Source of the DNA: a bacterium
GTDB lineage: Bacteria > UBA9089 > CG2-30-40-21 > SBAY01
Length of the DNA: 32,027 nucleotides
Assembly: GCA_030018635.1 (NCBI GenBank)
Contig: JASEHU010000001.1
Span: 1 to 32,027, forward strand
Direction of reading: 5' to 3'
Of this stretch, positions 1,320 through 28,885 are shown one piece after another. Under the pieces are notes generated by a model, which had not been told where the DNA came from, ran no database searches, and saw only the letters and a program-made list of their open reading frames with translations. Made by a program: the position numbers and the translations under genes. Position 1 is the stretch's first letter, and each line of letters begins with the position of its first letter.

Positions 1320-4157
1320 ATGGACTCAAAGGATTTTATATTTATCAAAGGGGCACGAGAACATAATCTAAAAAATATCGATGTCCAGATACCGCGAAAT
1401 AAATTGGTCGTCATTACCGGTTTGTCAGGCTCGGGTAAGTCCTCGTTAGCCTTTGATACCATCTATGCCGAGGGTCAAAGACGATATGTCGAATCGTTAT
1501 CTGCCTATGCTCGCCAGTTTTTAGGTCAGATGGAAAAACCGGATGTGGATTATATCGAAGGACTATCCCCGGCTATCGCCATCGAACAACGAACCGCCAG
1601 TAAGAATCCACGCTCTACTGTTGGCACTGCAACCGAGATATATGATTACCTCCGCCTTATGTTTGCCAGAATTGGTCAACCCCATTGCTATAAATGTGGG
1701 AAACCGCTAACCAAACAAACCGTAGATGAGATAGTCAACCAGTTAATGAATCTTCCGGAGAAGACCCGCATCCAGATCCTTGCCCCAATAGTTCGTGGTC
1801 GAAAAGGTGAGTATCAAGAAATCCTTTCAACTATTCGCAAGGAAGGATTTGTCCGGGCAAGGGTAGATAAAAAAGTCTATGCCCTGGAAGAAGAAATCAA
1901 ACTCGATAAAAACAAAAAACATAATATTGAGGTGGTGGTCGATAGACTTGTCTTGAAAGCTGAACGAGGTAGATTGGCTGACTCAATTGAGACAGCATTT
2001 AAACTATCAACAGGGATAGTCTTTATTGAGGTAGATGAGAAAGAGGATTTAATCTTTTCAGCCGAATTGGCCTGCCTGTATTGTGGGATTAGCTATGAGG
2101 AAATCTCGCCCCGGATGTTTTCCTTTAACAGCCCTTATGGCGCCTGCCCTACCTGTAAGGGATTAGGGGTTAAATTAGAAATCGACCCTGAATTAGTCGT
2201 GCCAAATAAAAATTTAAGTGTCTATAATGGGGCAATTAGACCCTGGGGTATCCCCTGGGAGGGATTACAACGGATATTAGAACGATTGGCCAGACGATAT
2301 AATTTTAGATTGGATGTCCCATTTAAAGACCTGAAAAAGGAACATCAACAACTCTTGCTTTATGGGACACAAGGGGAATATTATCGGACTCGATACAAGA
2401 CGCAATATTTTGGGGAATATGAAGGGGTAATCCCTGCCTTAGAACGGCGATTCAAAGAGACAGATTCAGAGATGTCCCGTGATGAGATTTCAGAATTTAT
2501 GACCAAACAATATTGCCCTACCTGCGACGGTGCCAGATTGAAAAAGGAAAGTTTAGCGGTCATAATTCAGGATATGTCCATTGGCCAGGTGAGTAAATTA
2601 TCCATTAAAAAGGCCTATGAGTTCTTCCAGAATTTAAAATTAACCGAAAAAGAGACACTCATTGCTCATCAAATCCTGAAAGAGCTCAAAAGGCGATTAG
2701 AATTTTTAATCAATGTAGGTGTTGACTACCTGACCTTAGACCGTGCCGCTGGGACATTAGCCGGAGGAGAGGCTCAACGAATTCAATTAGCTACACAAAT
2801 CGGCTCTGGATTGATGGGCGTGCTTTATATCTTAGATGAGCCGAGTATTGGATTACATCAGCGGGATAATAAAAGACTTTTAGATACCTTATGTTGTCTG
2901 CGGGATTTAGGCAATACCCTGATTGTGGTTGAGCATGATGAGGCAACGATTAGAATGGCTGACTATGTGCTTGATTTAGGGCCCGGTGCAGGAGAAAAGG
3001 GGGGATTTATCGTTGCTCAAGGCACACCGTCAGAAATTATTGATAATAATGATTCTCTAACCGGTAAATATTTAAAGGGGGATCTAAGGATTCCTATCCC
3101 TAAAAATCGGCTTAAACCAAAATCAAAATTTATCGAGGTTCGGGGAGCGGCAGAACATAATTTAAAAAATATCAATGTCAAAATTCCCATTGGGCTTTTG
3201 ACCTGTATTACCGGCGTCTCAGGCTCTGGGAAAAGCACACTGATTAGTGAGATTTTATATCCTGCCTTGCGTCAACACCTTTTAAGAAGTCATGCTAAAC
3301 CGGGCAAACATAAAGGGATTGTGGGATTAAATCATTTAGATAAGGTCATTAATATTGACCAGTCCCCCATCGGTCGCACCCCACGGTCCAATCCAACTAC
3401 TTATACCGGGACATTTACCCATATTCGGGATTTTTTTTCTTTATTTCCAGAGGCAAAGATGCGGGGATATAAACCCGGCAGGTTTAGTTTTAATGTCAAG
3501 GGTGGCCGATGTGAGGCCTGCCAGGGGGATGGCATTATTAAGATAGAGATGCACTTTTTACCCGATGTCTATATTCCTTGTGAGGTATGCAAGGGTAAAA
3601 GATACAACCGCGAAACCCTGGAGATAAAATATAAAGGTAAAAATATCGCTGATGTTTTGGATATGACTGTAGATGAGGCATCAGGTTTTTTTGCCAATAT
3701 ACCGCTTATTAAACGAAAATTAGAGACGATATCAGATGTAGGCCTGGGCTATATTAAACTTGGTCAGTCGGCAACTACCCTGTCAGGTGGAGAGGCACAA
3801 CGGATAAAATTATCGGCGGAATTAAGTAAGCGGGCTACCGGCAAAACACTCTATCTTTTAGATGAACCAACAACAGGCTTACACTTTGCCGATATTCATA
3901 AATTATTAGATGTCCTGATGCGGCTGCGGGATGCAGGCAATACCATTGTGATTATCGAGCATAATTTAGATGTCATCAAGACCGCAGATTATATTATTGA
4001 TTTAGGTCCTGAAGGTGGGGATGCAGGGGGTGAAATAGTGGCTGTAGGCTCACCTGAGGAGGTATCGAGGAATAAAAACTCCTATACAGGGCAAATTTTA
4101 GCCTCAGACCTGTCCGATAAGTCTGACATCTCTGACAAAGAAAGGGAAAAACCATGA
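1320..4157 (+). CDS. uvrA: Excinuclease ABC subunit A
   Basis: 945-aa ORF with two Walker A motifs ([18 protein letters not shown]) and two [11 protein letters not shown] signatures. Zinc-finger Cys pairs are present ([25 protein letters not shown]). A low-complexity C-terminal tail ([17 protein letters not shown]) follows. Confidence 0.97.
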
Positions 4158-4172
4158 ACCACCAGAATAACT

Positions 4173-5063
4173 TTATGGATTAGGTATATTCACCAAATCT
4201 GACCTGGGCACTATTCTTTCCATTATTCTATCCAAATCTTCCAATGAATAAAATTCGATTTCTATCTTCCCTCCTCCTTTTGCATCCTGCCTAATTCTGA
4301 TCTTAGTCCCCAGCACCCGCATTAAATCTTCTTCGCAGGCAACAAGCATGACATCTGGTTCACTCACTTGTGATGTTTCACGTGAAACATCTACTTGAGG
4401 TGATACCTCCTTTTTCATTCGCTTGACCAATGATTCAACCTCGCGAACAGAGAGTCCTTTTTTAATAACCCGTTCGCAAGTCTCTAGTTGTTGAACCTCG
4501 GATTCTAAACTCAATATTGCCCGAGCATGTCCCATCGAGAGACTCCCGTTTGAAATCTGCTCCTGAATTTTAATGGGTAATTTTAATAATCGCAGGGTGT
4601 TTGTTACAGAGGTGCGGTCTTTACCTACCTCCTTGGCTAAATTCTCCTGGGTTAAACCAAACTCCCGAATCAACCTTTGATATGCATCTGCCTCTTCCAT
4701 AGGATTCAAATCCTCTCGTTGAATATTTTCAATCAAGGCAATCTCTAATGCCTCACTGTCAACTACATCCTTGACTACCGCCGGGATACGGTCTAATCCA
4801 ATTGACCTTGCCGCCTGAAGCCTTCGCTCACCAGCAATTAATTCATACCCTTCTTTAGACGGTCTTAATAAAATCGGCTGAATTACCCCTTTCTCCCTGA
4901 TTGAATCGGCCAACTCTTTCTGCTTCTCCGGGTCGAAATATCGCCTCGGTTGATAACGACTTACCTGAATCTCCGAAATCTTTACCTCCCGAATATTCTC
5001 CCCTTCTGATTTAACCTCCGGCAATAATGCCTCTAACCCTTTACCTAAAGCTATCCTTTGCAT
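4173..5063 (-). CDS. parB: Chromosome partitioning protein ParB/Spo0J
   Basis: 296-aa ORF with ParB-box motifs (LIAGERRLQAA, IENIQREDLNPMEEA) and the HTH segment LTQENLAKEVGKDRTSVTNTLRLLKL. Confidence 0.93.
   Translation of the reverse strand: MQRIALGKGLEALLPEVKSEGENIREVKISEIQVSRYQPRRYFDPEKQKELADSIREKGVIQPILLRPSKEGYELIAGERRLQAARSIGLDRIPAVVKDVVDSEALEIALIENIQREDLNPMEEADAYQRLIREFGLTQENLAKEVGKDRTSVTNTLRLLKLPIKIQEQISNGSLSMGHARAILSLESEVQQLETCERVIKKGLSVREVESLVKRMKKEVSPQVDVSRETSQVSEPDVMLVACEEDLMRVLGTKIRIRQDAKGGGKIEIEFYSLEDLDRIMERIVPRSDLVNIPNP
4374..4389. promoter_or_regulatory. parS centromere-like site inside parB
   Basis: TGTTTCACGTGAAACA is an exact match to the Firmicutes-type parS consensus as I recall it. 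It sits in a 20-bp perfect palindrome, gatgtttcacgtgaaacatc (4372-4391), and encodes DVSRETS of ParB. Confidence 0.85.
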
Positions 5064-5101
5064 TTCTAAATTCCTCCTTTTTCTGAAGTTTCGTTAATTT
5101 A

Positions 5102-5163
5102 GTAATCGGATTAAGCGGATTTTAATCTTATATTTATCCGTTTAATCCGCTAAATCCGATTAC
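5102..5163. repeat. Intergenic hairpin with tandem-repeat arms (ggatt-type units)
   Basis: gtaatcggattaagcggatt (5102-5121) faces aatccgctaaatccgattac (5144-5163), with one indel. It lies between the stop of the 698-aa gene and the parB start. Confidence 0.8.
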
Positions 5164-5183
5164 CCAAAAAGAAATAATCCACT

Positions 5184-7280
5184 TTATCCCTTTTGATAAA
5201 ACCAATAATGTGCCGAGAAACAAGTATAATGATGCCTTAATTCTCGGTATATCTCAAACCTCACCTTAGTTTTGTTTGAGGTTATATGGCTTCCGGCAAC
5301 ATTATAAACCGTCTCGGTCCAGTTATCCTCTGCATTTCGATGTGTCCAGACACCAAGTAACTTATCATTGATATAAACCTCTAACGGGGTAAAGGTATTG
5401 GTTCTCTTGATTATCCTCAAATCCTTTCCCGGCTCAGTCTCAATTACCATCCGTTCTCCAGCGGTAATCATTCTGCCGGCATCAATGACAATTTTATCCG
5501 GTGCCTCCAGACAAGGTAGTTTAATCGCCTGGTCCTGATAATTCATCCCATAATACATCCCCGGCTCTGATTCCCAAAATTTATATTTATGCCTTAACTC
5601 ATCCTCCACATCGGCCACATCAACCCTATCAACTAATTTATATTCGGCTAATTGTTGTAAAATATCCGGAGATTGAACCGCATCCCCTGAATGAGCCAAT
5701 TGCCAATCCACTTTATAGACTACCATCGGTGCCCCACTGCCGGCAATTGTCGGCTGAATCAATTTGAATTGAGCGACCTCATCCCCTAACATCCCCAGCC
5801 TATCAAAGACAAACCAATTAGGATAAATGATAAAATACTGGGGATAATGTTTGGCGTCTAAATTCTCAAGATATTCATAAACACTCCCGGCACCATTTAC
5901 CCATGACCGGGCCATGCCCTTAGTGCCCAGACCAAGCAAGTCAATGACATACCTATTGCCAAAATATTTTAATGCCCCCAGGTCATTTAAGGCAATAACC
6001 GCATCTTCCGGGATATTTTTATCTATCCATTCACCCAAGGTTATTTGCTGAAAATAAATATCTTTGCAGTTTTTCCCGTAGGCAACACCAAAATAGATGG
6101 TACTCATCAAGGTAAAACTTAATAAGAAGACGACTAATCCATAAAAGACATATTTGGACCCACCAACTACCTTGCCCATTAAATCACTAAAATAATAAAC
6201 CCCTAAAAGTGTAAAAATAAGAAACAGGGGATAGTAGGGGATAAGATACCGATGCCAATGCCATTTAAAGGGAAGGGCGACGGCGACCGCTAATGTCCCT
6301 GTAAAAAAACAGGCTAAACTGAGCATCCCAAATTTTGACCTTTCCTTAAGGATTAAAAAAAGACCACCCAACAAGAAAAAGATTAAAGAAAACGGGGCAA
6401 AATAGACACTAACCTGTCTTCCTTCATTTGTCTCCATTAAGGTTGAAAACTCACCATTAAAGCCACCAAAAATATCCTTTAAAATATAAATATAATATTT
6501 ACCCCCGGTAGCCAACATGTCCAATAAATCAACATTTGGTTTGGTCAGGACAGACTTGGCCGTCATCGTGTTAGCACTCAGGGTGCCATTAAATAAATAA
6601 TTTACCCCTATCTGCCCAATACCTAATCCAATTGGAATGAGGAAATAATAACTCTTTATCCCTTTTAACAAAAAGATGCCACCAAAGATAATTACGGATA
6701 GGACAAATCCTTCAGGTCGGGCTAAGGTCATCAATGAGGCAGACCAGATAGTCCGTCTGTATCGCTGTTCGTTATCATCTAACTCGATAAGGAGTGATAA
6801 CATTGTCGCCAGAATTGAGGTAGTAAATAATCCAGCATCCATACCACTTAAATGAACCCATAAGGTTGGTCCATTGAAAAGAAATAAAAGACTCATTAAA
6901 ACCCCAGCCTGATGATTAATTAACCTCTTCCCAATATTATACATCAACCAACCAGAAATGACTAAAAAGATTACCCCCAGGCTAAAGGTATAATAAAGTA
7001 TGGCTGTTTTACCCAGCCCGATTAAAAATCCAGGGATTAAGAAAAAGAGATAAATCAGACTGGTCGTTCCGGTTGTCGGAGGGTCACCTGTATTATATTG
7101 CCAGGGATGTCCATGGATAAACTGCCAGGTATATTGAAGAAAGATAAAGGTATCATCCAATGGGGCAGATAAATGTCCACTGGTATAATAAAACATTGTG
7201 CCTAAGTAAAAAATGGAAATGCTCACCGCCACAATTAAAATCCAAATTACCGGATAATAAATTTCTTTATATTTAAACAT
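5184..7280 (-). CDS. Polytopic membrane protein, GT-C-like N-terminal domain plus soluble C-terminal domain (paralog 1)
   Basis: 698-aa ORF with RBS AAGGAGGA. It has at least 10 hydrophobic helices. An early loop motif LDDTFIFLQY...GHPWQYNTGDPPTTG and a later RPEG motif recall GT-C glycosyl/arabinofuranosyl-transferase-like families. The last ~170 aa are hydrophilic. It is clearly paralogous to 7443-9554. The ORF call is secure; the function is tentative. Confidence 0.6.
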   Translation of the reverse strand: MFKYKEIYYPVIWILIVAVSISIFYLGTMFYYTSGHLSAPLDDTFIFLQYTWQFIHGHPWQYNTGDPPTTGTTSLIYLFFLIPGFLIGLGKTAILYYTFSLGVIFLVISGWLMYNIGKRLINHQAGVLMSLLFLFNGPTLWVHLSGMDAGLFTTSILATMLSLLIELDDNEQRYRRTIWSASLMTLARPEGFVLSVIIFGGIFLLKGIKSYYFLIPIGLGIGQIGVNYLFNGTLSANTMTAKSVLTKPNVDLLDMLATGGKYYIYILKDIFGGFNGEFSTLMETNEGRQVSVYFAPFSLIFFLLGGLFLILKERSKFGMLSLACFFTGTLAVAVALPFKWHWHRYLIPYYPLFLIFTLLGVYYFSDLMGKVVGGSKYVFYGLVVFLLSFTLMSTIYFGVAYGKNCKDIYFQQITLGEWIDKNIPEDAVIALNDLGALKYFGNRYVIDLLGLGTKGMARSWVNGAGSVYEYLENLDAKHYPQYFIIYPNWFVFDRLGMLGDEVAQFKLIQPTIAGSGAPMVVYKVDWQLAHSGDAVQSPDILQQLAEYKLVDRVDVADVEDELRHKYKFWESEPGMYYGMNYQDQAIKLPCLEAPDKIVIDAGRMITAGERMVIETEPGKDLRIIKRTNTFTPLEVYINDKLLGVWTHRNAEDNWTETVYNVAGSHITSNKTKVRFEIYRELRHHYTCFSAHYWFYQKG

Positions 7281-7310
7281 TCTTTTAAGTTAATCCTCCT
7301 TCTACTGGAG

Positions 7311-7427
7311 TTTCGTGAATTTATCTATAGTAGAATCACGAAATCACGAAAGGACGAAGGCACGAAATAGTTTTTAAATTAACTATCTATAAGTTTTCGT
7401 ACTTTCTATCTTTCGTGCTTTCGTGAT
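7311..7427. repeat. Intergenic hairpin with 8-nt cacgaa-type tandem arms
   Basis: Left arm atcacgaaatcacgaaaggacgaaggcacgaaatag (7335-7370) faces right arm ctataagttttcgtactttctatctttcgtgctttcgtgat (7387-7427). It lies between the two paralogous membrane-protein genes. Confidence 0.8.
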
Positions 7428-7442
7428 ATTATGCCATGCCAT

Positions 7443-9554
7443 TTATTTCTGGAAAAACCAATAATAACCCACTGAATAGGTATCTTGCTGTTTATCCCTG
7501 ACCTCAATATGTACCTTTGTCGAGTTTGATGTTACCCATTGGCCGGGGATAGTAACCAAAGACTCTGACCAGGTATTGCCGGGATTTGTTTCATCAATCC
7601 ACTTTCGGCAATATTTCCCGTTTATCAGCACATCCAACTTTAATGCCCCTGTTGTACGCATGACTATTTTCATTTCCTGCCCGGGCTGTGTTTTTACCAC
7701 CATATCCTCTCCACCCGAAAGGCTGCGGCCACCATCCATAATTTGTCTATCCAGACAAGGAAACGTATAAACATAAGTGGTGCTATTTAACCCTGGTTCT
7801 GCCTCCCAAAATCTATACTTGTGTTCGGCCTCACTATCTAAATTAGCCACATCAATCTTATCCACCAATTTATAGCCAGATAGAGAGGTCATCGGTTCAT
7901 CGCCCTTATTGGATAGACTCCAGTCTGCTTGATAGACATTTATCGGTTCAATAGGACGCACCCCCACTACCCTGGCTGAATAAAGCTCTGTTTTCAATAA
8001 TCCTGAACGAGTCAAATCTAAACGGTCAAGGACAAAACAGGCCGGATAAAGTTTTTTCTCCTCAAGCCATTCAAATATACTCCCCACACCATTTTGATAT
8101 GCCTTAGCTAACCCCTTAGTCCCCACCCCGCATAAATCAATAAAATTTCTATTCTCATAATACCTTAATGTATTTATCCCATTCATGGCTATGGTGACAT
8201 CAGCCGGGATATTTTCTCTTATCCATTTCACCAATCCCATCTTTTGATGATAATTATCCTTGCAAATCTTACCATAGGCAACGACAAAAAACGAGGTACT
8301 AAATAGTGAAAAAACGATGAAAAAAGAAGATAGTCCGTAAAAGGTTTGTTTTAAGGATATGGTCGTAACCATATTGGTTATCATGAGAGAAAAATGATAA
8401 ATACCCACAACCACGCCAAGGAGGAAGAGTGGATAATAGGGAATGAGTGTCATATTCCAGGAATAATCCGTGGGGAAGGTAATGGCCACCAGACCAATCC
8501 CCATAAAAAACCAGATAACCATCAGAAGATTAATGCCTAATCTCCTGGCATAGATCTCCTTAACGGCTAAAGGTAGTGAGCCGAATAAAAAGAAGAGAAA
8601 GGCAAACGGGGCAAAATAGGTGGCCGTCTGTCCGGCATCAGGACTTATCATCTCTGTGTAGGCACCGTTAAAGCCTCCAAATATCTCCTTTAAAAGATAG
8701 GCATAAAACTTAATCGACTTAGCTAAAATCTCCAGTAAAGGCATATTGGGGGAAAATAATGGGGATTTAGATTGCAGGAAGGTAGAAAAGAGACTGCCTA
8801 TTAGAATCAAGTTTAAGAAGACACAGCTAATTCCAATAATCGCAGGGATAAAAATGAGGATACTCTTTAATTTCGCCGCCCCTTGATTAAGGAGTAGGTT
8901 GATGATAAGGACAACGACCAACAAGATGGAAAGCACCGCCCCTTCTGGATGAGTCATGGCTAAGAGTGAACCTAAAATAACCGTCTTTTTGTAATCTCCA
9001 TCCTGCTCTCGCAAGAAGAAATAAAGGGTGGCTAAAATTACCGTACTAAAAAGCCCAATTTCGGTCCCACTTAAATATCCCCAGCTAATTGGTCCATTGA
9101 GAAGAAAAAGGAGACCGGCAATTATCCCTAACTCCCGACCAAAGAAACCCTCGGCTATCCGCAAGATTAACCAACCAGATAAAAAGAAAAATATCATCCC
9201 CAGGAGAAAGGCGTAACAAATCATTCCGTTGCCGGTTAGTCCAATGAAAAATCCCGGGGCCAAAATGATAGTGTAAAGAAGACTTCTAACACCAGTTGTA
9301 GGGGTATCTCCGAAGTTGTATTGAAAGGGATGTCCTGCGGATAATTGTTTAGCGTAATGAAAATATGAAAAGGAGTCATCCACTGGTAAGAAGAAATATC
9401 CGCCACTATAAAAGAGCGTAGAAATTACATACAAAATGGATATCCCCAGCACAAGGCCGATAAGGCTATAATTATATTTAGCCTCAACCCCTATTTTTTT
9501 TGCTTGAAGGATTTTTTCCCGTTTTTCTGATTTTTTCTTTTTTATCTTAGCCAT
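7443..9554 (-). CDS. Polytopic membrane protein, GT-C-like N-terminal domain plus soluble C-terminal domain (paralog 2)
   Basis: 703-aa ORF. It shares VDDSFSYFHY...GHPFQYNFGDTPTTG, HPEG, YFAPF, IPYYPLFL, YKLVDKIDVA and a YWFFQK C-terminus with the 698-aa neighbour. Its start overlaps the parA stop by 8 nt. Confidence 0.6.
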   Translation of the reverse strand: MAKIKKKKSEKREKILQAKKIGVEAKYNYSLIGLVLGISILYVISTLFYSGGYFFLPVDDSFSYFHYAKQLSAGHPFQYNFGDTPTTGVRSLLYTIILAPGFFIGLTGNGMICYAFLLGMIFFFLSGWLILRIAEGFFGRELGIIAGLLFLLNGPISWGYLSGTEIGLFSTVILATLYFFLREQDGDYKKTVILGSLLAMTHPEGAVLSILLVVVLIINLLLNQGAAKLKSILIFIPAIIGISCVFLNLILIGSLFSTFLQSKSPLFSPNMPLLEILAKSIKFYAYLLKEIFGGFNGAYTEMISPDAGQTATYFAPFAFLFFLFGSLPLAVKEIYARRLGINLLMVIWFFMGIGLVAITFPTDYSWNMTLIPYYPLFLLGVVVGIYHFSLMITNMVTTISLKQTFYGLSSFFIVFSLFSTSFFVVAYGKICKDNYHQKMGLVKWIRENIPADVTIAMNGINTLRYYENRNFIDLCGVGTKGLAKAYQNGVGSIFEWLEEKKLYPACFVLDRLDLTRSGLLKTELYSARVVGVRPIEPINVYQADWSLSNKGDEPMTSLSGYKLVDKIDVANLDSEAEHKYRFWEAEPGLNSTTYVYTFPCLDRQIMDGGRSLSGGEDMVVKTQPGQEMKIVMRTTGALKLDVLINGKYCRKWIDETNPGNTWSESLVTIPGQWVTSNSTKVHIEVRDKQQDTYSVGYYWFFQK

Positions 9555-10347
9555 TGGTTTTTACTACCTCCTCTATCACCAGACCACCATCACGGTTGAT
9601 TATTTCCCGGGCCAAACTTATATACGACTCTGCCCCTGTTGAATTTATATCATAAAGAATAATAGGCTTACCAAAACTTGGTGCCTCTGAAAGTCGGACA
9701 TTACACGGGATGATGGTTTGATAGACCTTATCCTTGAAACATTTTTTAATCTCGGCGGTAATCTGTTGGGAAAGGTTTGTTCGGGCATCAAACATAGTCA
9801 AAAGTATCCCTTCAACCTTCAGGTCAGGATTAATCTTACCCTGGACCAGGGTAATTGTTCCTAAAAGTTGCCCCAATCCTTCTAAGGCATAATATTCACA
9901 TTGAATAGGAATCAGAACCGTCTCCGCGGCAACTAAGGAATTCAAGGTAAGTAATCCTAAGGAAGGTGGGGTGTCAATAAAAATATACTTATAATTATCT
10001 TTAATCGAGGTGAGGACATTCTTTAATTGCAACTCCCTTTCTTCTATGTTCACTAATTCAATCTCTGCCCCGGTTAAGGTAACATTGGAAGGGATTAAAT
10101 CCAGATGTTCCATCTCGGTTTTCTGGATAGCCCTGTCAATTGGCGCCTTCCCAATCAAAACCTCATAAATGTTCGGCTCACATTTATGTTTATCAAACCC
10201 TAATCCACTTGTAGAATTACCTTGTGGGTCCATATCAACCAGCAGGCAATCCTGGCCTAACATAGCCAAACATGCGGCTACATTTACAGCCGTAGTGGTC
10301 TTCCCTACACCACCTTTTTGATTAGCAATAGTAATTATTCTACCCAT
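9547..10347 (-). CDS. parA: Chromosome partitioning ATPase ParA/Soj
   Basis: 266-aa ORF with the deviant Walker A NQKGGVGKTT, plus DMDPQGN and IDTPPSLG motifs. Confidence 0.95.
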   Translation of the reverse strand: MGRIITIANQKGGVGKTTTAVNVAACLAMLGQDCLLVDMDPQGNSTSGLGFDKHKCEPNIYEVLIGKAPIDRAIQKTEMEHLDLIPSNVTLTGAEIELVNIEERELQLKNVLTSIKDNYKYIFIDTPPSLGLLTLNSLVAAETVLIPIQCEYYALEGLGQLLGTITLVQGKINPDLKVEGILLTMFDARTNLSQQITAEIKKCFKDKVYQTIIPCNVRLSEAPSFGKPIILYDINSTGAESYISLAREIINRDGGLVIEEVVKTNG

Positions 10348-10402: not shown

Positions 10403-11128
10403 TCATTTCAATGGTTTTCTTTGTGGAATTCCTGGCCTTCGAGGATATTCTAAAGGCGACGACTTGAGCTTTTCTATAATCACCAGGTTTCTCTCCTCAT
10501 GAAGGATTGGCAGGATTATTCGTTTTTGTTCCCTTATCCTGCCACCTAAAACCTCTATTGCCTTTTGTGCATGGCTTACCTCATTCTGGATATCAAACCC
10601 TTTTTGGGCAATGAATATCCCCCCTGCTTTTAAAAAAGGTAAGGCACACTCAACTAAGGTATTTAATTTAGCCACAGCCCTGGCCACGACAACATCATAT
10701 CTCTCTCGATATTCTACTTTCTTACCCAAATCTTCTGCTCTACCTATTAAAATTTCAAATTCTATGGATAGCTGATTTTTAAGGTGATACAGGAAATCTA
10801 CCTGTTTTTCGTTTGAATCCAGTAAAGTTAATTCAATCCCCGGGTGACAAATTTTTAGTGGTATACCCGGAAATCCCGCTCCAGTACCAAGGTCAATTAT
10901 CTTCATTCCCTTGTCTGGATTAAATCCACAAAAACAGGTCAATGAATCAAGGAAATGTTTAATAATGATTTCCTTTGAGGTTTTAATCCCGGTTAGATGC
11001 ACCTGTTGGTTATAACTCTTAAGTGTATCTAAATAGACAAAGAACAATCTTATTTGAGGGTCATTGAAGTTAATTTCTAACCCCTCTGCCCCTTGTTTTA
11101 GCAATTCTTGCAACCCATCTTTTTGCAT
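10403..11128 (-). CDS. rsmG: 16S rRNA (guanine527-N7)-methyltransferase RsmG/GidB
   Basis: 241-aa ORF with SAM-binding motif DLGTGAGFPGIPL, in the conserved position immediately upstream of parA. Confidence 0.9.
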   Translation of the reverse strand: MQKDGLQELLKQGAEGLEINFNDPQIRLFFVYLDTLKSYNQQVHLTGIKTSKEIIIKHFLDSLTCFCGFNPDKGMKIIDLGTGAGFPGIPLKICHPGIELTLLDSNEKQVDFLYHLKNQLSIEFEILIGRAEDLGKKVEYRERYDVVVARAVAKLNTLVECALPFLKAGGIFIAQKGFDIQNEVSHAQKAIEVLGGRIREQKRIILPILHEERNLVIIEKLKSSPLEYPRRPGIPQRKPLK

Positions 11129-11187
11129 CTTATTTTATTAGAGTGTAATACATTTTGGCTTATATGTCAAGAAAAAAATCCACCAAT

Positions 11188-11231
11188 GTCAATTAAGAAT
11201 TAAAAGTGGACACTTTTAATTCTTAATTGAC
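11188..11231. promoter_or_regulatory. Perfect 21+2+21 bp palindrome in the divergent rsmG/rpmF control region (candidate operator)
   Basis: gtcaattaagaattaaaagtg-ga-cacttttaattcttaattgac with no mismatch. Each arm ends in a TTGACA hexamer that reads outward on its own strand. Confidence 0.5.
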
Positions 11232-11247
11232 ATCCTAAAAAATCTTC

Positions 11248-12578: not shown

Positions 12579-12813
12579 GTGAGCAAGGAGCAAGGTTTTT
12601 CGTAAGCGTTCAGGTAAAATGTAGAATGTAGAATATTGAATGTAGAATGTAAAAGGAAGGCAGGAAAAATAGTAAAACTTCATAATTCTACATTCTACAT
12701 TCTACATTCAATATTCTACATTCAAGGTGAATTTCCGTTTGCACAGGTCGAGGTTTTTGCTTCAATTCTTCACCTTGATCCTCGTTCCTTGTTCCTTCCA
12801 CTGAGGAACAAGG
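12579..12813. repeat. Nested long hairpin complex between plsX and fabH (atgtaga heptad arms inside gagcaagg arms)
   Basis: Inner arms are aatgtagaatgtagaatattgaatgtagaatgt (12618-12650) and attctacattctacattctacattcaatattctacatt (12685-12722). Outer arms are gtgagcaaggagcaagg (12579-12595) and ccttgatcctcgttccttgttcc (about 12773-12797). A separate perfect 9-bp hairpin, ccttgttcc/ggaacaagg, lies at 12787-12813. Confidence 0.8.
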
Positions 12814-15240: not shown

Positions 15241-15861
15241 ATGAACAATAACCAAATCAATAAAATTACAGAAGATATTAATTTTATCAAAAGCATTTAT
15301 AAGAAATTAATAACAATGCTTCCTTCTTTCGATATTACTGATAAAGATATATTGCCTTACGGACTGAAACCGCATACGAGGTCCGTTAGTTGGCTTGTTG
15401 AACAGGTTATTACCCAACAAACGAAATTTAGAGCAAAACAACTGGGTCTTGATGATGTCAGTTTTGATATGCCTGATACATGTTTGCATGACTGTGAAAT
15501 TAAAATCGATGAAAAAATTTACTATATTAATGTAAAAATTCATAATGTTGCCATGAAAGAAAACAAAAATGACATAGCAGCAGTTGAAAAACTTTACATG
15601 CAATATGCTGCTAATTCCTCCTATGATTTAATTTATACTTGTTTTGGGATAGGTTTTAAGGATATAAATATTAAATTTGATCCTGATTATTTATGTTTAT
15701 TTTCTCCACAATTTTTGCCAATTTATGTGAATCCCAGAAATGATAAAATTCAAGCATATTATCATCATGACCCAGTATATAGAACAAGAGAAGAATTTTT
15801 AAAACTGCTTCGTGATAGTTCAAAAAGCATAATATTGAAACCACAAAAGGAGAAAGATTGA
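15241..15861 (+). CDS. Putative type II restriction endonuclease (partner of the downstream methyltransferase)
   Basis: 206-aa ORF, very AT-rich, with a 4-nt overlap onto the methyltransferase gene. The segment MPDTCLHDCEIK may be a PD...ExK-like motif, but the spacing is short. I recognise no family, so the call rests mainly on context. Confidence 0.45.
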   Translation: MNNNQINKITEDINFIKSIYKKLITMLPSFDITDKDILPYGLKPHTRSVSWLVEQVITQQTKFRAKQLGLDDVSFDMPDTCLHDCEIKIDEKIYYINVKIHNVAMKENKNDIAAVEKLYMQYAANSSYDLIYTCFGIGFKDINIKFDPDYLCLFSPQFLPIYVNPRNDKIQAYYHHDPVYRTREEFLKLLRDSSKSIILKPQKEKD

Positions 15862-16727
15862 ATATGGAAGAGATTTTAAATAAAATCTTTAATGAGGATG
15901 TGCTGAAGGGAATATCTAAAATTCCTGATAATTTTGTGGATTTAGTTGTGGCTGACCCTCCATATTGTTTAGGAAAGGATTACGGAAATAATTCTGATAA
16001 ATTAAAACCAGAGGATTATATAAAATGGAGTAAAAAATGGATAGATGCAGTAATTCCAAAAATAAAAAATACTGGTAGTTTTTATATATTTTTAACATGG
16101 CAACATAGTCCAGAGATTTTTAGTTATATAAAAACAAAACTTATTATGATAAATGAAATTATATGGGATAGAAAAGTACCGAGTATGGGTGGAAGCACCA
16201 GAAAATTTTCCTCTGTTCATGATAATATTGGATTTTTTGTAAAAACAAAGGATTATTATTTTGATATTGACGCAGTAAGAATTCCTTATGATGCAGAAAC
16301 TAAAAAAGCAAGGACTCGTTCAATTTTTGTGGGTAAAAAATGGCTTGAAATTGGATACAACCCAAAAGATTTATGGAGTGTAACAAGGATTCACGCAGAA
16401 GATCCAGAAAGAGAAACCCACCCCACGCAAAAGCCACTGGAGATTGTAGAAAGAATTATTAACGCAAGTTGTCCAGAACAAGGAGTTGTTGTCGATCCAT
16501 TTATGGGTAGTGGAACAACAGCAATTGCTTGCATTAAACTCAAAAGAAATTACATTGGTTTTGAAATAAATTCTAATTACTGTGAAATGATAGAAGAAAG
16601 AATTAATAAAGCAACAAACCCACTCTTTCTTTTTATCATACCAGAAAGAAATAATGGTGGAAATGAACAACAGGATTTGTTTGATTATGAAGAACTTGTA
16701 ACAAAATATTTAAGTGAGGTGAAATAA
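15858..16727 (+). CDS. Beta-class N6-adenine/N4-cytosine DNA methyltransferase (N6_N4_Mtase type)
   Basis: 289-aa ORF. Motif IV VVADPPY is near the N-terminus and SAM motif I DPFMGSGTTAIAC is near the C-terminus, which is the beta-class order. HPTQKPLEIVERII is also present. DPPY favours m6A. In-frame ATG 15864, behind AAGGAG, is an alternative start. Confidence 0.88.
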   Translation: MNMEEILNKIFNEDVLKGISKIPDNFVDLVVADPPYCLGKDYGNNSDKLKPEDYIKWSKKWIDAVIPKIKNTGSFYIFLTWQHSPEIFSYIKTKLIMINEIIWDRKVPSMGGSTRKFSSVHDNIGFFVKTKDYYFDIDAVRIPYDAETKKARTRSIFVGKKWLEIGYNPKDLWSVTRIHAEDPERETHPTQKPLEIVERIINASCPEQGVVVDPFMGSGTTAIACIKLKRNYIGFEINSNYCEMIEERINKATNPLFLFIIPERNNGGNEQQDLFDYEELVTKYLSEVK

Positions 16728-17493: not shown

Positions 17494-17648
17494 GGAATGG
17501 TTCACTTTAATTTGAAAGATTGCGGTTAAAAGATGGAGTTGGAAATTAGAAATTAGAAATTAGGTTTACAAGTCTCTCCCCAATTTCTAATTTCCAATTT
17601 CCAATTTCTAAAAGAAATCATAGTAAAAACGATAAAATGAACCGTCCC
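17494..17648. repeat. Complete palindromic element: TIR-like ends, 45-nt module and gaaatta heptad hairpin
   Basis: Left end ggaatggttcac (17494-17505) matches right end atgaaccgtccc (17637-17648) as an inverted pair. The core arms are ggaaattagaaattagaaattagg and ccccaatttctaatttccaatttccaatttct. The left flank is the reverse complement of the module found at 21905 and 24841. Confidence 0.8.
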
Positions 17649-19325: not shown

Positions 19326-20060
19326 ATGAATGAGACTCGAATTCAACAACTTAACGAAATGCAATCTGCCCTTAGTCTGGAATTTAAAAACATTGATTTG
19401 TTAAATCAGTCCTTGACCCATACATCTTATGCCTACGAATTAAGTAGTGACCGTAATAATGGCGGTATATTGCAGAATGAAAGAATGGAATTTCTTGGCG
19501 ATGTAGTTTTAGGTCTTATCGTCAGTGAGTATATTTACCAGAAATATCCTGATTATATGGAAGGGGATTTAGCTAAGATTCGGGCTAAGGTAGTTAGCCG
19601 ACCGATATTGGCCAAGCGGGCTAAACATTTAGAACTGGGTAAGTATCTACTTCTGGGTAAAGGCGAAGAGATAACAGAAGGAAGACACAGGCATTCTATT
19701 TTAGCCGATACTATGGAAGCCCTAATTGGTGCAATTTATTTAGATTCCGGCTTAGAAAAATCCCGCTATTTTATTTTAGCCCAATTTGAAGAAGAAATCG
19801 AAAAAATCACTGATAATGTTCATGTGCAGGATTATAAAACCGATTTTCAGGAATGGACCCAAAAGAAATTTAAAACCCTTCCTTTTTATAAGGTGATTAA
19901 TAGAGAGGGGCCTGACCATGAGCGAATTTTCGAGATAGCAGTTATGGTCAAAGGGGAAACATATGGCATAGGAAAGGGCGGAAGTAAAAAGGAGGCAGAA
20001 CAAAGAGCGGCTTACTTCGCCTTGCAACATGCAAAGGAAAGAGTGAAGAGTGAAAAGTGA
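19326..20060 (+). CDS. rnc: Ribonuclease III
   Basis: 244-aa ORF with the RNase III signature NERMEFLGDVVLG and a C-terminal dsRNA-binding domain (GPDHERIFEI...GSKKEAEQRAA). The last codons are encoded by the gagtgaa repeat. Confidence 0.95.
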   Translation: MNETRIQQLNEMQSALSLEFKNIDLLNQSLTHTSYAYELSSDRNNGGILQNERMEFLGDVVLGLIVSEYIYQKYPDYMEGDLAKIRAKVVSRPILAKRAKHLELGKYLLLGKGEEITEGRHRHSILADTMEALIGAIYLDSGLEKSRYFILAQFEEEIEKITDNVHVQDYKTDFQEWTQKKFKTLPFYKVINREGPDHERIFEIAVMVKGETYGIGKGGSKKEAEQRAAYFALQHAKERVKSEK

Positions 20061-20125
20061 AGAGTGAAGAGTGAAAAACTAAAAACTAATAATTTTCCAC
20101 TATTCACTATTCACTATTCACTTTT
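20037..20125. repeat. Hairpin with gagtgaa / cactatt heptad arms that overlaps the rnc 3' end
   Basis: Left arm is gagtgaagagtgaaaagtgaagagtgaagagtgaaaa. Right arm is ccactattcactattcactattcactttt. There is one periodic mismatch per heptad. Confidence 0.8.
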
Positions 20126-23728: not shown

Positions 23729-23887
23729 AACTATATTTATTAAGTAAGCAAATCTTATGCCAGGACAGGTTGAATCTTTTATATCCATAGTATTTATGAG
23801 GAATCAGGTGATTTTAATAAGTTTTAAACATGGGATTAGCTGTCAGTTTTTTATGACAGAAATAGGTAGGAAGTGTCATTTTTATAA

Positions 23888-24009
23888 GTGAATAGTGAAT
23901 AGTGAATAGTGAATAGTGAATAGGAAATAGGAAATAGCTAATATTTCCTCTTCATTCTTCACTATTCACTATTCACTTTTCACTATTAACTATTCACTTT
24001 TCACTTTTC
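23888..24009. repeat. Hairpin with gtgaata / ggaaata heptad arms that overlaps the 3' end of the DUF3108-like gene
   Basis: Left arm is (gtgaata)x5 followed by (ggaaata)x2. Right arm is tttcctcttcattcttcactattcactattcacttttcactattaactattcacttttcactttt. Confidence 0.8.
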
Positions 24010-24728
24010 TTACACAAATAGGCGCTCAATAATCCTGCCTCAGTTTTTACCGCAATCTTAACCGGAGTATGTGTTTTATCGGTAGCAAACCAAATAACAA
24101 TATCTGTCTCTGCACCAACTTGTTTGGCCATTAGGGCTGTAAAATTCCCATAAGGTGTGGTCATCTTTTCTTCTTTAACTATCGCTACCTTAACCTGTTC
24201 TGTTCCAGACCTGGTTAATAGATTAAAATTATATAAATTCCCAACCTTCAACTCTTGATTTCTCAAATAATAGATTAAAGAAAGCGAATCTAAGGTATTG
24301 GCGGTAATATTTATCTCTTTAGTTTCTTGATTTTGTTTATTGAAGATGGTCGCCTTTTTATTGGTTTGGTTCACTGAAAATTCATAGTGTCTACGATATT
24401 TTCCTCTATCAATATCCGTTATTGTCCGCACTGGAAGTAGATTTGAGGTTCTTACCCAACTATCTATTTGTTCTGACAGGTAATAAAATTTTGAAAAAAA
24501 AGGATTGGTTTTAATCTCTGATTTGAGGTGATAGGTTTCCTCTGTATTTATTATCTCTTTCCCGAGCACCTGGTCTATTTGAGTTCCTATTTTAAACCCT
24601 AATAGTCGAACCTCGTAAGTAAATTTTTCACCTACACAAACAAAATCTTCCTGGGCAAAAACAATAGGAGTAATTAAAATAAATATGCTTATCAAAAATA
24701 TTCTTATACCGGAATGATTTATTTTCAT
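23994..24728 (-). CDS. DUF3108-like secreted/periplasmic protein
   Basis: 244-aa ORF with a signal peptide. GEKFTYEVRLLGFKIG near the N-terminus, DSLSLIYYLRNQELKVG in the middle and a VIWFATDKTHTPVKI C-terminal motif match my recollection of DUF3108. Confidence 0.6.
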   Translation of the reverse strand: MKINHSGIRIFLISIFILITPIVFAQEDFVCVGEKFTYEVRLLGFKIGTQIDQVLGKEIINTEETYHLKSEIKTNPFFSKFYYLSEQIDSWVRTSNLLPVRTITDIDRGKYRRHYEFSVNQTNKKATIFNKQNQETKEINITANTLDSLSLIYYLRNQELKVGNLYNFNLLTRSGTEQVKVAIVKEEKMTTPYGNFTALMAKQVGAETDIVIWFATDKTHTPVKIAVKTEAGLLSAYLCKKSEK

Positions 24729-24754
24729 CGTCTCTCCTGTGATTTTAAAATACT

Positions 24755-24884
24755 GAAATTAGAAATTGGAAATTAGAAAACAGGACTTCTCGTTTCCTCT
24801 CTCTCCCCACAGTTTCTAATTTCCAATTTCTAATTTCAACTCCATCTTTTACCCGCAATCTTTCACACTAAAGTGAACCATCCC
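24755..24884. repeat. gaaatta heptad hairpin plus right-hand 45-nt module
   Basis: Left arm gaaattagaaattggaaattagaaaa faces right arm ccccacagtttctaatttccaatttctaatttc. The module tccatcttttacccgcaatctttcacactaaagtgaaccatccc follows. Confidence 0.8.
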
Positions 24885-24892
24885 AGAACCTT

Positions 24893-26257
24893 TTATTCTT
24901 TATTTTCAACTTTCTTTACACCATATATAATAAGATATACTAAAACGCCAACCATTATAGTCAAAACAGCACTAAGTATTGCCTTAGAGGACAAAATTGG
25001 TTTCTTTCCCCTGGTATCTTTTGTATTCACCTGTTGTTTCCCAATATTCCAACGATTACCACCGACAGGTGAAGATTCAGCTAACACAGAAGAAACATCA
25101 TACCTTGGAACCTCAAACCCTTCTCCCCCATAGCAAACTTTTAGAGACTTTTTACCCCTGTGAAAAAATAGTATTTCATGGATTGGTCCCTTGCCTGCGG
25201 CTGAATCAATCTCAATCGGTGTATTGTCTTGATTGATTATTTTCATACGATATCGTAAATATCTACATATAAGTGGCAGATTAATCTCTATTTTTTCTTT
25301 GTGAAATTGCCCCGCACTTATATTGAATATTTCGCTTGAGACAACTCCGGACCAAATTGGGTTTGCAGTAGTATCATCTGTACCTTCAATGATGACTTTT
25401 CGTTTAAAATTTTTGCTTTTTACCTTAAGTGCTATTTTTTTTAAAGGCTGCCTATTGGAGCTTATATAAATTTCGCTTGTTTTTTTATCCTTATCAATAG
25501 AGGTTTCTATTATTCTCAGGGGGTATTTTAGTGTTTCTTCTCTCCCATAGATGAGATTCTCTTTCTTTCCAGAAAAGATAATATTATCAATATGTAAGGC
25601 ACCTTCGTACTGGATAAATGCCTCATATTTTTCTTGAATTTGCTCCTTGCTGTATTTAGTAAATATTTGTGAAAATGATGATTTTAATGGTTGCGAGACA
25701 TTATCTATCGTTATTTTATAATAGGTAAAAGGTACCTTCTCAAAGGAAATACTCATATTACGAAGATCAATAAATTTTGAATAATCAAAGATAGGTTGAT
25801 TCTCTACAATAAGATGCCATTGTTCTTTATCATTACTACCATATAGAGAAACACCCTTTTCAAAATTTTTATTTGGTGTTTGAATAATCATATCAGAAGG
25901 AACCAATTTCTTGTTCTTATTCTCCAGGATAATGTTTATACGGTTATCCGCCAATTCCTCAAAAGTCAAAGTAGTTAAGGGAACTGGATAGGTACTTATT
26001 ACTTTCTCATTGACCTTTCGGGTTCTAACTACATATGGTATAGTATTATTGTTTTCGTCAAATATCCTTAGATTAGCAAACGAATTATCTGTATTTTTGT
26101 AAATATCGGCATCCAGGGTGATAACACCAATTTCATCTTTGATTAGCGACGGCACCTCTGCTTGTTTATAATATAGGAGCTCTTCATCTGCTATACAGAT
26201 AGCAACCCTTACACCAACCACAACAAATAAAATTAATATCCATTTTATTACCTTCAT
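24893..26257 (-). CDS. DUF3999-like protein (signal peptide, large extracytoplasmic domain, C-terminal TM anchor)
   Basis: 454-aa ORF with N-terminal signal MKVIKWILILFVVVGVRVAIC and C-terminal helix AILSAVLTIMVGVLVYLIIYGV. The size and its pairing with a DUF2339-like gene (4-nt overlap) fit DUF3999 as I recall it. The family assignment is unverified. Confidence 0.5.
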   Translation of the reverse strand: MKVIKWILILFVVVGVRVAICIADEELLYYKQAEVPSLIKDEIGVITLDADIYKNTDNSFANLRIFDENNNTIPYVVRTRKVNEKVISTYPVPLTTLTFEELADNRINIILENKNKKLVPSDMIIQTPNKNFEKGVSLYGSNDKEQWHLIVENQPIFDYSKFIDLRNMSISFEKVPFTYYKITIDNVSQPLKSSFSQIFTKYSKEQIQEKYEAFIQYEGALHIDNIIFSGKKENLIYGREETLKYPLRIIETSIDKDKKTSEIYISSNRQPLKKIALKVKSKNFKRKVIIEGTDDTTANPIWSGVVSSEIFNISAGQFHKEKIEINLPLICRYLRYRMKIINQDNTPIEIDSAAGKGPIHEILFFHRGKKSLKVCYGGEGFEVPRYDVSSVLAESSPVGGNRWNIGKQQVNTKDTRGKKPILSSKAILSAVLTIMVGVLVYLIIYGVKKVENKE

Positions 26258-28716: not shown

Positions 28717-28885
28717 AACAACTCCTTTTTTATAGAATGGTAATGTCAAAAGTTTTACTGCAATTTTTTTCTAAGTCGCGATGATTAAAGAGGTTATTTA
28801 TCCTTTAGCCTCCTCCCCCCATTTGACCATAAGTTTACCGTCTTACCCACTCCAAGATATATCTAACCTTCTCCTCTAAAGGGTA

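Follow-up and report, generated by a model that had tools for sequence, protein, structure and literature searches.

The levels of ParA and ParB are thought to be tightly balanced, and parA and parB are almost always adjacent. Operons of the gidAB-parAB and parAB kinds have been described (PMC13438810, PMC2346475), and most bacteria have the order gidA-gidB(rsmG)-parA-parB. The locus on contig JASEHU010000001.1, which comes from a metagenome-assembled genome (MAG) and whose 32,027 nt are referred to here as the window, has the same flanking genes on the same strand and likewise a parS within parB. Whereas parAB is contiguous in the usual gidAB-parAB cluster, parA and parB are separated in the window by 4.5 kb that hold two genes for membrane proteins, here named MemA and MemB, and their spacers. 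MemA and MemB likewise keep parB from standing immediately downstream of parA in at least six genomes besides the window. The lineage that has retained these 4.5 kb of membrane-enzyme genes constitutes a natural experiment on the importance of parAB adjacency.

A locus without a simple two-gene parAB operon is also known from Borrelia, where parA and parB lie head-to-head, ParB lacks the ParA-activating motif and the soluble centromere-binding protein ParZ is a new partner of ParA (10.1101/2022.07.05.498848). The Borrelia parA-parZ/parB locus resembles the window in that another gene directly follows parA. Unlike in Borrelia, ParB of the window keeps the motif (LGKGL), and the intervening genes encode polytopic, predicted GT-C enzymes.

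For these intervening genes, the mycobacterial arabinofuranosyltransferases AftB, EmbA-EmbB and AftD offer a comparison, as enzymes that combine the same GT-C_A glycosyltransferase fold with a periplasmic carbohydrate-binding C-terminal domain. Like the MemA and MemB genes, embA and embB are adjacent paralogues, and their products form the EmbA-EmbB heterodimer (PDB 7bvf, 7bvc). The mycobacterial enzymes, however, belong to an actinobacterial host and to a cell-wall cluster, while MemA and MemB occur in an uncultured, Desantisbacteria-like host and inside a parAB operon. The presence of LptF/LptG in the locus of a relative suggests that this host is diderm.

The arrangement had been taken to be undescribed, and literature searches on Desantisbacteria, on genes between parA and parB and on separated parA and parB indeed found no report of it. 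Its parts are of known kinds, GT-C_A proteins on the one hand and a canonical ParABS system on the other; the novelty lies in the conserved way in which the two are interleaved and in an unannotated GT-C family with a possible pseudo-enzyme as one partner.

Layout and conservation of the locus

The original prediction gave the minus-strand gene order as rsmG, parA, a 703-aa membrane protein, a 698-aa membrane protein and parB, and all five open reading frames (ORFs) were found as follows.

11142..11170, minus strand: candidate operon promoter upstream of rsmG; best sigma-70-like match, TTGACA-17-TACACT, 10/12, a consensus match only
10403..11128, minus strand: rsmG (gidB), 16S rRNA m7G527 methyltransferase, first gene of the cluster; PF02527 2.4e-44, TIGR00138 1.3e-48 (above the curated cut-off)
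9547..10347, minus strand: parA/soj, chromosomal partition ATPase; AAA_31 3e-69, deviant Walker A motif KGGVGKT
7443..9554, minus strand: MemA, first-position GT-C_A-fold paralogue, 703 aa; ORF with homology to MemB and a weak PMT_2 match
5184..7280, minus strand: MemB, second-position GT-C_A-fold paralogue, 698 aa; ORF with an AlphaFold2 (AF2) model, keeps DD and RPEG
4173..5063, minus strand: parB/spo0J; ParB_N 9e-34, HTH_ParB 2e-40, ParB_C 1.5e-12, TIGR00180 1.5e-56
4374..4389, unstranded: parS inside parB, perfect consensus TGTTTCACGTGAAACA

The ATG of MemA (locus tag QME42_00030) sits 8 nt inside the end of parA (ATGGCTAA), an overlap that had been predicted, and is preceded by a GAGGAGG Shine-Dalgarno sequence. 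Across the loci compared, the gaps between parA and MemA are -8, -8, -8, 1, 1, 1, 37, 37 and 110 nt, so that the gap is -8 or 1 nt in six genomes, the window included; in L006 (loci of the survey carry L numbers) the three successive junctions measure -8, 5 and 19 nt. The genes are packed as in an operon, and this spacing suggests that they are co-expressed. In a scan for promoter-like and terminator-like sites, the totals for the window equalled those of shuffled sequence.

ParA, ParB and parS are canonical. ParA is of the Soj type and has full-length matches among chromosomal partition ATPases in the PDB (ParA 8ray, 5e-93; Soj 6iub, 2e-71; Thermus Soj 1wcv, 1e-63). ParB begins with MQRIALGKGLEALL, which holds LGKGL, a form of the LG(R/K)GL ParA-activating motif, at residues 6-10, and it carries the GERRLQAAR box and all three domains (ParB_N, HTH_ParB and ParB_C). 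The parS matches the consensus with 0 mismatches and stands alone in the window even at a tolerance of 3 mismatches; shuffled sequences at the 3-mismatch setting gave a mean of 0.19 matches, with at least one in 18 of 100, figures that apply to that setting and not to an exact match.

Conservation was surveyed by look-ups of exact proteins and one scan of the GTDB species-representative genomes, with loci re-annotated by tblastn using the window proteins. The order parA-MemA-MemB-parB was found in at least seven species-level genomes, reaching Candidatus (Ca.) Desantisbacteria. It is complete as (rsmG-)parA-MemA-MemB-parB-uvrA in L006 (GCA_040754115), and complete too in L003/L004, L016, L014 (Ca. 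Desantisbacteria CG2_30_40_21) and the Ca. Desantisbacteria MAGs L001 and L002, in which a small PDDEXK_3 gene is added before parB; two further loci, L019 and L024, are cut by contig ends and are consistent with it. Between the window group and the Desantisbacteria group, identity to the window proteins amounts to about 70% for ParA, 63% for ParB, 70% for UvrA, 54% for MemB and 41% for MemA, while the genes outside rsmG and uvrA vary between loci. The arrangement is therefore more than a local rearrangement, the outcome that had been named as refuting the original prediction: these relatives share the order, and parAB is not contiguous in them.

In a neighbour-joining tree, the proteins of the first position and those of the second position each form a clade with 100% bootstrap, and a third, "solo" clade (100%) joins both with a support of 98% for the grouping. 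The monophyly of the two position clades implies that the duplication and the insertion predate the split of the window and Desantisbacteria groups and that each copy has kept its place since. To set the polarity of the insertion, an outgroup with contiguous parAB was sought in the next-closest ParB lineages, L027 and L028, and none was found there. With ParB at 56-57% identity, these two loci (L027 5792-7930; L028 177-2097) have the order gidA-rsmG-parB with no parA between rsmG and parB, and an Asp-dehydrogenase-like and an MptE-like gene downstream of parB.

Three relatives depart from the complete order, with every junction lost once. In the close relative GCA_005239945, MemA-MemB-parB are contiguous, the contigs L012 and L026 overlapping by about 99 identical nt; similarity of L012 to the window ends 19 nt before the MemA ATG, and upstream of MemA there is no parA but a divergent FG-GAP gene and a promoter-like TTGACT-17-TAGAAT. 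In L013, a convergent HEAT-repeat gene lies 9 nt behind parA-MemA, and neither MemB nor parB follows. In L015, parA-MemA-MemB is followed by a convergent gene of 351 aa and then by purL (read from translation), with no parB following.

Some smaller observations concern the same loci. The uvrA gene (1320-4157 in the window) and parB converge in both the window and L026, whereas uvrA is co-directional downstream of parB in L006 and in the Desantisbacteria-group loci compared (L001 and L003), which indicates a local uvrA inversion in the sub-lineage of the window. In L024, from a MAG labelled Omnitrophota, the MemB orthologue (1035-2908) is split into two overlapping frames by a frameshift or a sequencing error. 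The locus contigs L012, L013, L018, L024 and L025 were deposited under names that are unrelated to it (Nitrospira, Nitrospirota, Pseudobdellovibrionaceae, Omnitrophota and Marinifilum), which suggests mis-binning or mislabelling.

Fold, motifs and family of MemA and MemB

MemA and MemB align end to end with 39% identity and 59% similarity over about 697 residues (E 6e-159), and all motifs listed in the original prediction are present in the alignment, so that the paralogy it proposed holds over the full length. An AF2 model of MemB built on a 31-sequence alignment (predicted local distance difference test 90.2, predicted template-modelling score 0.89) was compared with the PDB by Foldseek, and the top 27 matches were all GT-C_A enzymes (probability 1.00, E 4e-8 to 1e-4), namely STT3, AglB, PglB, AftD, EmbA/B/C, ArnT, AftB and ALG9/ALG12. 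The GT-C-like character proposed for the N-terminal domain is borne out by this search. The next matches, to the carbohydrate-binding modules (CBMs) CBM6 and CBM35 and to the carbohydrate-binding domain of BcsB, fall on the C-terminal beta-sandwich. In the model, the polytopic domain covers residues ~1-422, and residues ~423-698 form a predicted periplasmic region of an alpha/beta subdomain followed by a CBM-like beta-sandwich of ~150 aa; the soluble C-terminal domain is thus ~275 aa long and not ~170 aa, as had been estimated.

Over the membrane domain, the best structural matches of MemB are STT3, AglB, PglB and ArnT (E 4e-8 to 2e-6; template-modelling score, normalised by query length, ~0.44), with which it shares 11-15% identity. 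These enzymes all have a periplasmic or lumenal site at which they use donors linked to a lipid phosphate. The CBM-like C-terminal domain of MemB is unlike the peptide-binding domain of oligosaccharyltransferase.

At the level of sequence, no Pfam or NCBIfam model reached its threshold with MemA or MemB. MemA matches PMT_2 (PF13231) with 17.0 bits (E 0.007), below the gathering threshold of 26.1 bits, and MemB has no match to this GT39/GT83-like model at E<=1. When the family profile was compared with all PDB sequences, only AftB was found, at a marginal E of 0.039 over 200 positions, and the corresponding structural match of the MemB model (AftB 9dlh) has E 1e-5 and a root-mean-square deviation of 6.6. 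In the profile alignment, the DD of the family (D42-D43 of MemB; VDDSF in MemA) falls on D61-D62 of AftB and the R of RPEG on R221. AftB D62, at the tip of the first juxtamembrane helix, is the catalytic residue common to GT-C_A enzymes, and R221 and R372 stabilise the departing phosphate (PMC12041299). The P-E-G and the second Asp of DD are at least 90% conserved in the 31-sequence family alignment. Fold and motif thus support membership of the GT-C class, as far as model and alignment go, and no named sequence family applies.

The 28-residue N-terminal tail of MemA contains 11 Lys/Arg, and the 54-residue loop that follows and bears DD contains only two, which agrees with an N-terminus in the cytoplasm and an active site in the periplasm. 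By analogy with all GT-C_A enzymes of known structure, the sugar donor of MemA and MemB would be polyprenyl-phosphate-linked, and the active site would be periplasmic and made up of the Asp of DD, which lies on the first loop on that side, and the Arg of RPEG. The sugar would be passed to a periplasmic acceptor, an envelope glycan or a protein, that the CBM-like C-terminal domain would hold.

The two paralogues differ in how well they keep these motifs. DD and RPEG are retained by the MemB orthologues of every genome in the motif table. MemA of the window group retains DD and has HPEG (as in the window itself) or HPAG instead of RPEG, and in MemA of the Desantisbacteria group SK replaces DD and RFEG replaces RPEG (L001 4816-6948; L003 10001-12151; P0014). 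MemA orthologues also stand on longer branches of the tree than MemB orthologues, and MemA evolves faster. All first-position orthologues nevertheless begin with a Lys-rich tail of 22-30 aa, M(A/G)K(I/V/T)KKK(K/R), which in the window comprises MemA residues 1-28 (9471-9554) and which is kept even in orthologues without the catalytic Asp, while the tail of MemB has just 4-7 residues. The joint retention of an intact copy and a decaying copy suggests a working pair in which MemB is catalytic. Like the products of embA and embB, which offer a precedent, MemA and MemB are probably partners in one function, MemB being the constant catalytic subunit and MemA of the Desantisbacteria group a possible pseudo-enzyme.

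MemA and MemB belong to a very large family. At E<=1e-3, an exhaustive profile search returned 36,148 cluster representatives, of which 2,359 reached E<=1e-30, and most of the best 150 members listed have the full-length architecture. All members that were looked up are named "hypothetical protein", except for distant 510-aa relatives that JGI calls arabinofuranosyltransferase, and none of ten distant homologues that were scanned reached the threshold of a Pfam or NCBIfam model. Some homologues lie among genes of glycan synthesis: in L008, a 35%-identical homologue is found between GT2 and GT87 genes in a cluster with six PMT_2 genes (the GT2 gene directly upstream encodes 237 aa), and homologues in the range of 30-35% identity adjoin a polysaccharide deacetylase gene in L010 and stand beside a PMT_2-TPR protein and GT9 in L011. 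Members of the solo clade are found after trpA (L020), after a Band_7 gene (L022), next to DUF362 (L005 and L020) and after rplL (L029 2708-5228), in the last case 22 nt behind the L7/L12 gene, where rpoB is usually expected. A family of this size outside Pfam and NCBIfam thus gains a high-confidence model and candidate catalytic residues, and it includes an apparent catalytic subunit paired with a degenerating one.

Probable inherited insertion and proposed coupling to segregation

The arrangement is probably, though far from certainly, explained by an insertion of the GT-C_A pair into the rsmG-parA-parB operon in an ancestor of the clade and by its inheritance there since, as a pair with MemB as the catalytic member that rides on a housekeeping operon, with no mechanistic link to segregation implied. 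One transcription unit would run from rsmG through parA, MemA and MemB to parB, starting at the candidate housekeeping promoter in front of rsmG, and translation of MemA would be coupled to that of parA. This location would give it constitutive, origin-proximal housekeeping expression. An insertion of another kind in the window, at 15241-16727, fits such hitch-hiking: a restriction-modification-like pair, consisting of a 206-aa ORF without a Pfam match and an N6_N4 DNA methylase (with a low GC content of 0.30-0.33), separates fabD from fabG in the fatty-acid synthesis operon, the junctions measuring 15 nt and 1 nt. The solo-clade GT-C gene after rplL fits it as well, and these genomes seem often to carry unrelated genes within housekeeping operons.

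Several observations weigh against this explanation. The position of MemA-MemB in L012 behind a promoter-like site of their own suggests that co-transcription with parA is dispensable. The window gaps of 162 nt and 120 nt hold strong hairpins that could attenuate read-through within the presumed transcription unit. The evidence for a MemA-MemB heteromer consists of adjacency, co-retention and asymmetric motif decay. Finally, the long retention of the order while the flanks past rsmG and uvrA shuffle could equally reflect selection for a functional link.

Other explanations would remove the need for an inherited insertion or would change the nature of the inserted proteins. As the source is metagenome-assembled, repeats lie at both window junctions and uvrA is inverted relative to other relatives, the order might be a local rearrangement or an assembly artefact peculiar to this contig. 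This is barely credible and was ruled out by synteny in independent assemblies, since the same order occurs in assemblies from different samples and depositors (GCA_040754115, GCA_043806395, GCA_043823455, GCA_017973795, MNYI01, JAHIZN01 and a Logan assembly) and is found in L006 without the hairpin repeats. It is extremely unlikely that the upstream "parA" encodes instead a BcsQ-, MinD- or BY-kinase-like ATPase that serves the glycosyltransferase pair, as BcsQ serves cellulose synthase. Secondary matches to CBP_BcsQ (1.2e-9) and to tyrosine-autokinase models would be in line with such a role, but the best PDB matches are chromosomal ParA/Soj proteins over the full length (5e-93 to 1e-63), and the gene directly follows rsmG, as in gidB-parAB operons (PMC13438810, PMC2346475), with parB and parS downstream; the candidate was rejected on these grounds. 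A further possibility is that MemA and MemB have the architecture of GT-C proteins without being transferases and act as polymerases, flippases or scaffold proteins. The lack of a Pfam or NCBIfam model at threshold, the marginal similarity to solved GT-C sequences (E 0.039) and the loss of the catalytic Asp in one MemA subclade would agree with this. It is nonetheless a very improbable reading, as every MemB orthologue keeps the DD and RPEG that align with AftB, the P-E-G and second Asp are at least 90% conserved and homologues are embedded in glycosyltransferase clusters.

Alternatively, a coordination of envelope glycan synthesis with segregation, be it temporal, spatial or by direct contact, could be what has kept the GT-C pair within parAB, and in one version of this idea ParA would position or regulate the enzymes through MemA. 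The order has been kept over a deep divergence (ParA ~70%, MemA ~41%) in which the genes outside rsmG and uvrA differ, and the parA-MemA junction is the tightest of the cluster, with the 8-nt overlap in three genomes and a gap of 1 nt in three more. The Lys-rich and presumably cytoplasmic MemA tail is present in every first-position orthologue, even in those without the catalytic Asp, against 4-7 residues in MemB, and in Borrelia the parZ gene adjoining parA proved to encode its functional partner (10.1101/2022.07.05.498848). Such coupling is still unlikely. L012 lacks parA, L013 lacks MemB and parB and L015 lacks parB, three breaks that speak for a dispensable linkage; ParB keeps its LGKGL ParA-activating peptide and parS, so that no replacement partner is needed; the third clade and all more distant homologues lie outside par loci; and Lys-rich tails have other explanations too, namely the positive-inside rule and the favouring of translation initiation by A-rich codons. 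The link between segregation and envelope growth that had been proposed for this locus hence finds no support, given the broken junctions and the occurrence of out-paralogues and distant homologues in unrelated or glycosyltransferase contexts. A more specific proposal, for which the odds are long, is that MemA is a membrane-anchored partner whose Lys-rich tail, comparable in action to the basic peptides at the N-terminus of ParB-type and MinE-type partners, tethers or stimulates ParA at sites of envelope glycan synthesis. If this were true, segregation of the chromosome and growth of the envelope would be physically joined in this candidate phylum by a GT-C (pseudo)enzyme. A functional coupling to ParA would tie envelope biogenesis to segregation in a new way, although hitch-hiking of the inserted pair is more likely on present evidence.

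Intergenic hairpins and other features of the window

The hairpins of the two gaps were located as follows.

7335..7427, unstranded: hairpin between MemA and MemB, CACGAAAG-type tandem repeats and their complement; lineage-specific insertion
5102..5163, unstranded: hairpin between MemB and parB, 20-nt arms, 95% complementary; lineage-specific insertion

Their fold energies are -33 kcal/mol (5102-5163) and -40.5 kcal/mol (7335-7427), with z of -4.9 and -5.7 against shuffled controls. Neither is followed by a run of T, and a scan for intrinsic terminators found none in either gap. The hairpin between MemA and MemB is missing in L006 and L012, where the gap is 5 nt and 9 nt, respectively, and the one between MemB and parB is present in L012/L026 and missing in L006, where the gap is 19 nt.

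Both belong to a class of hairpins in which one arm is a run of 7-8-nt tandem repeats that faces its complement. The repeat unit differs from site to site (e.g. GTGAATA, GAATGTA, GAAATTA and CACGAAAG), and further examples in the window lie at 958-1046, 12609-12731, 17539-17604, 20053-20125, 23886-24009 and 24754-24838; the class includes sites in the plsX-fabH interval and behind fabG. At gathering thresholds, Rfam gave no match anywhere in the window. Judged by comparison with the relatives, both hairpins of the par locus are recent lineage-specific insertions and not conserved terminators, with nothing specific to this locus, and the class looks like a genome-wide intergenic element. A role of the hairpins at 5102 and 7311 as conserved regulatory or terminator sites finds no support, as they are not conserved in L006 and partly not in L012, lack a T-run and belong to a class that is common in the window.

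A palindrome with perfect 23-nt arms and 2 nt between them is found at 11186-11233 in the divergent region of rsmG and the plsX operon. It carries TTGACA-like boxes and lies just upstream of the best rsmG promoter match, where it may serve as an operator. A 94-aa ORF (675-959) that is close to the left contig end and adjoins an HTH_17 gene matches only positions 98-168 of MFS_1 and is probably a fragment of a transporter gene. At 23994-28749, genes for DUF3108, DUF3999 and DUF2339 (the last a predicted membrane protein of 831 aa) follow one another on the minus strand and form an uncharacterised, membrane-associated cluster.

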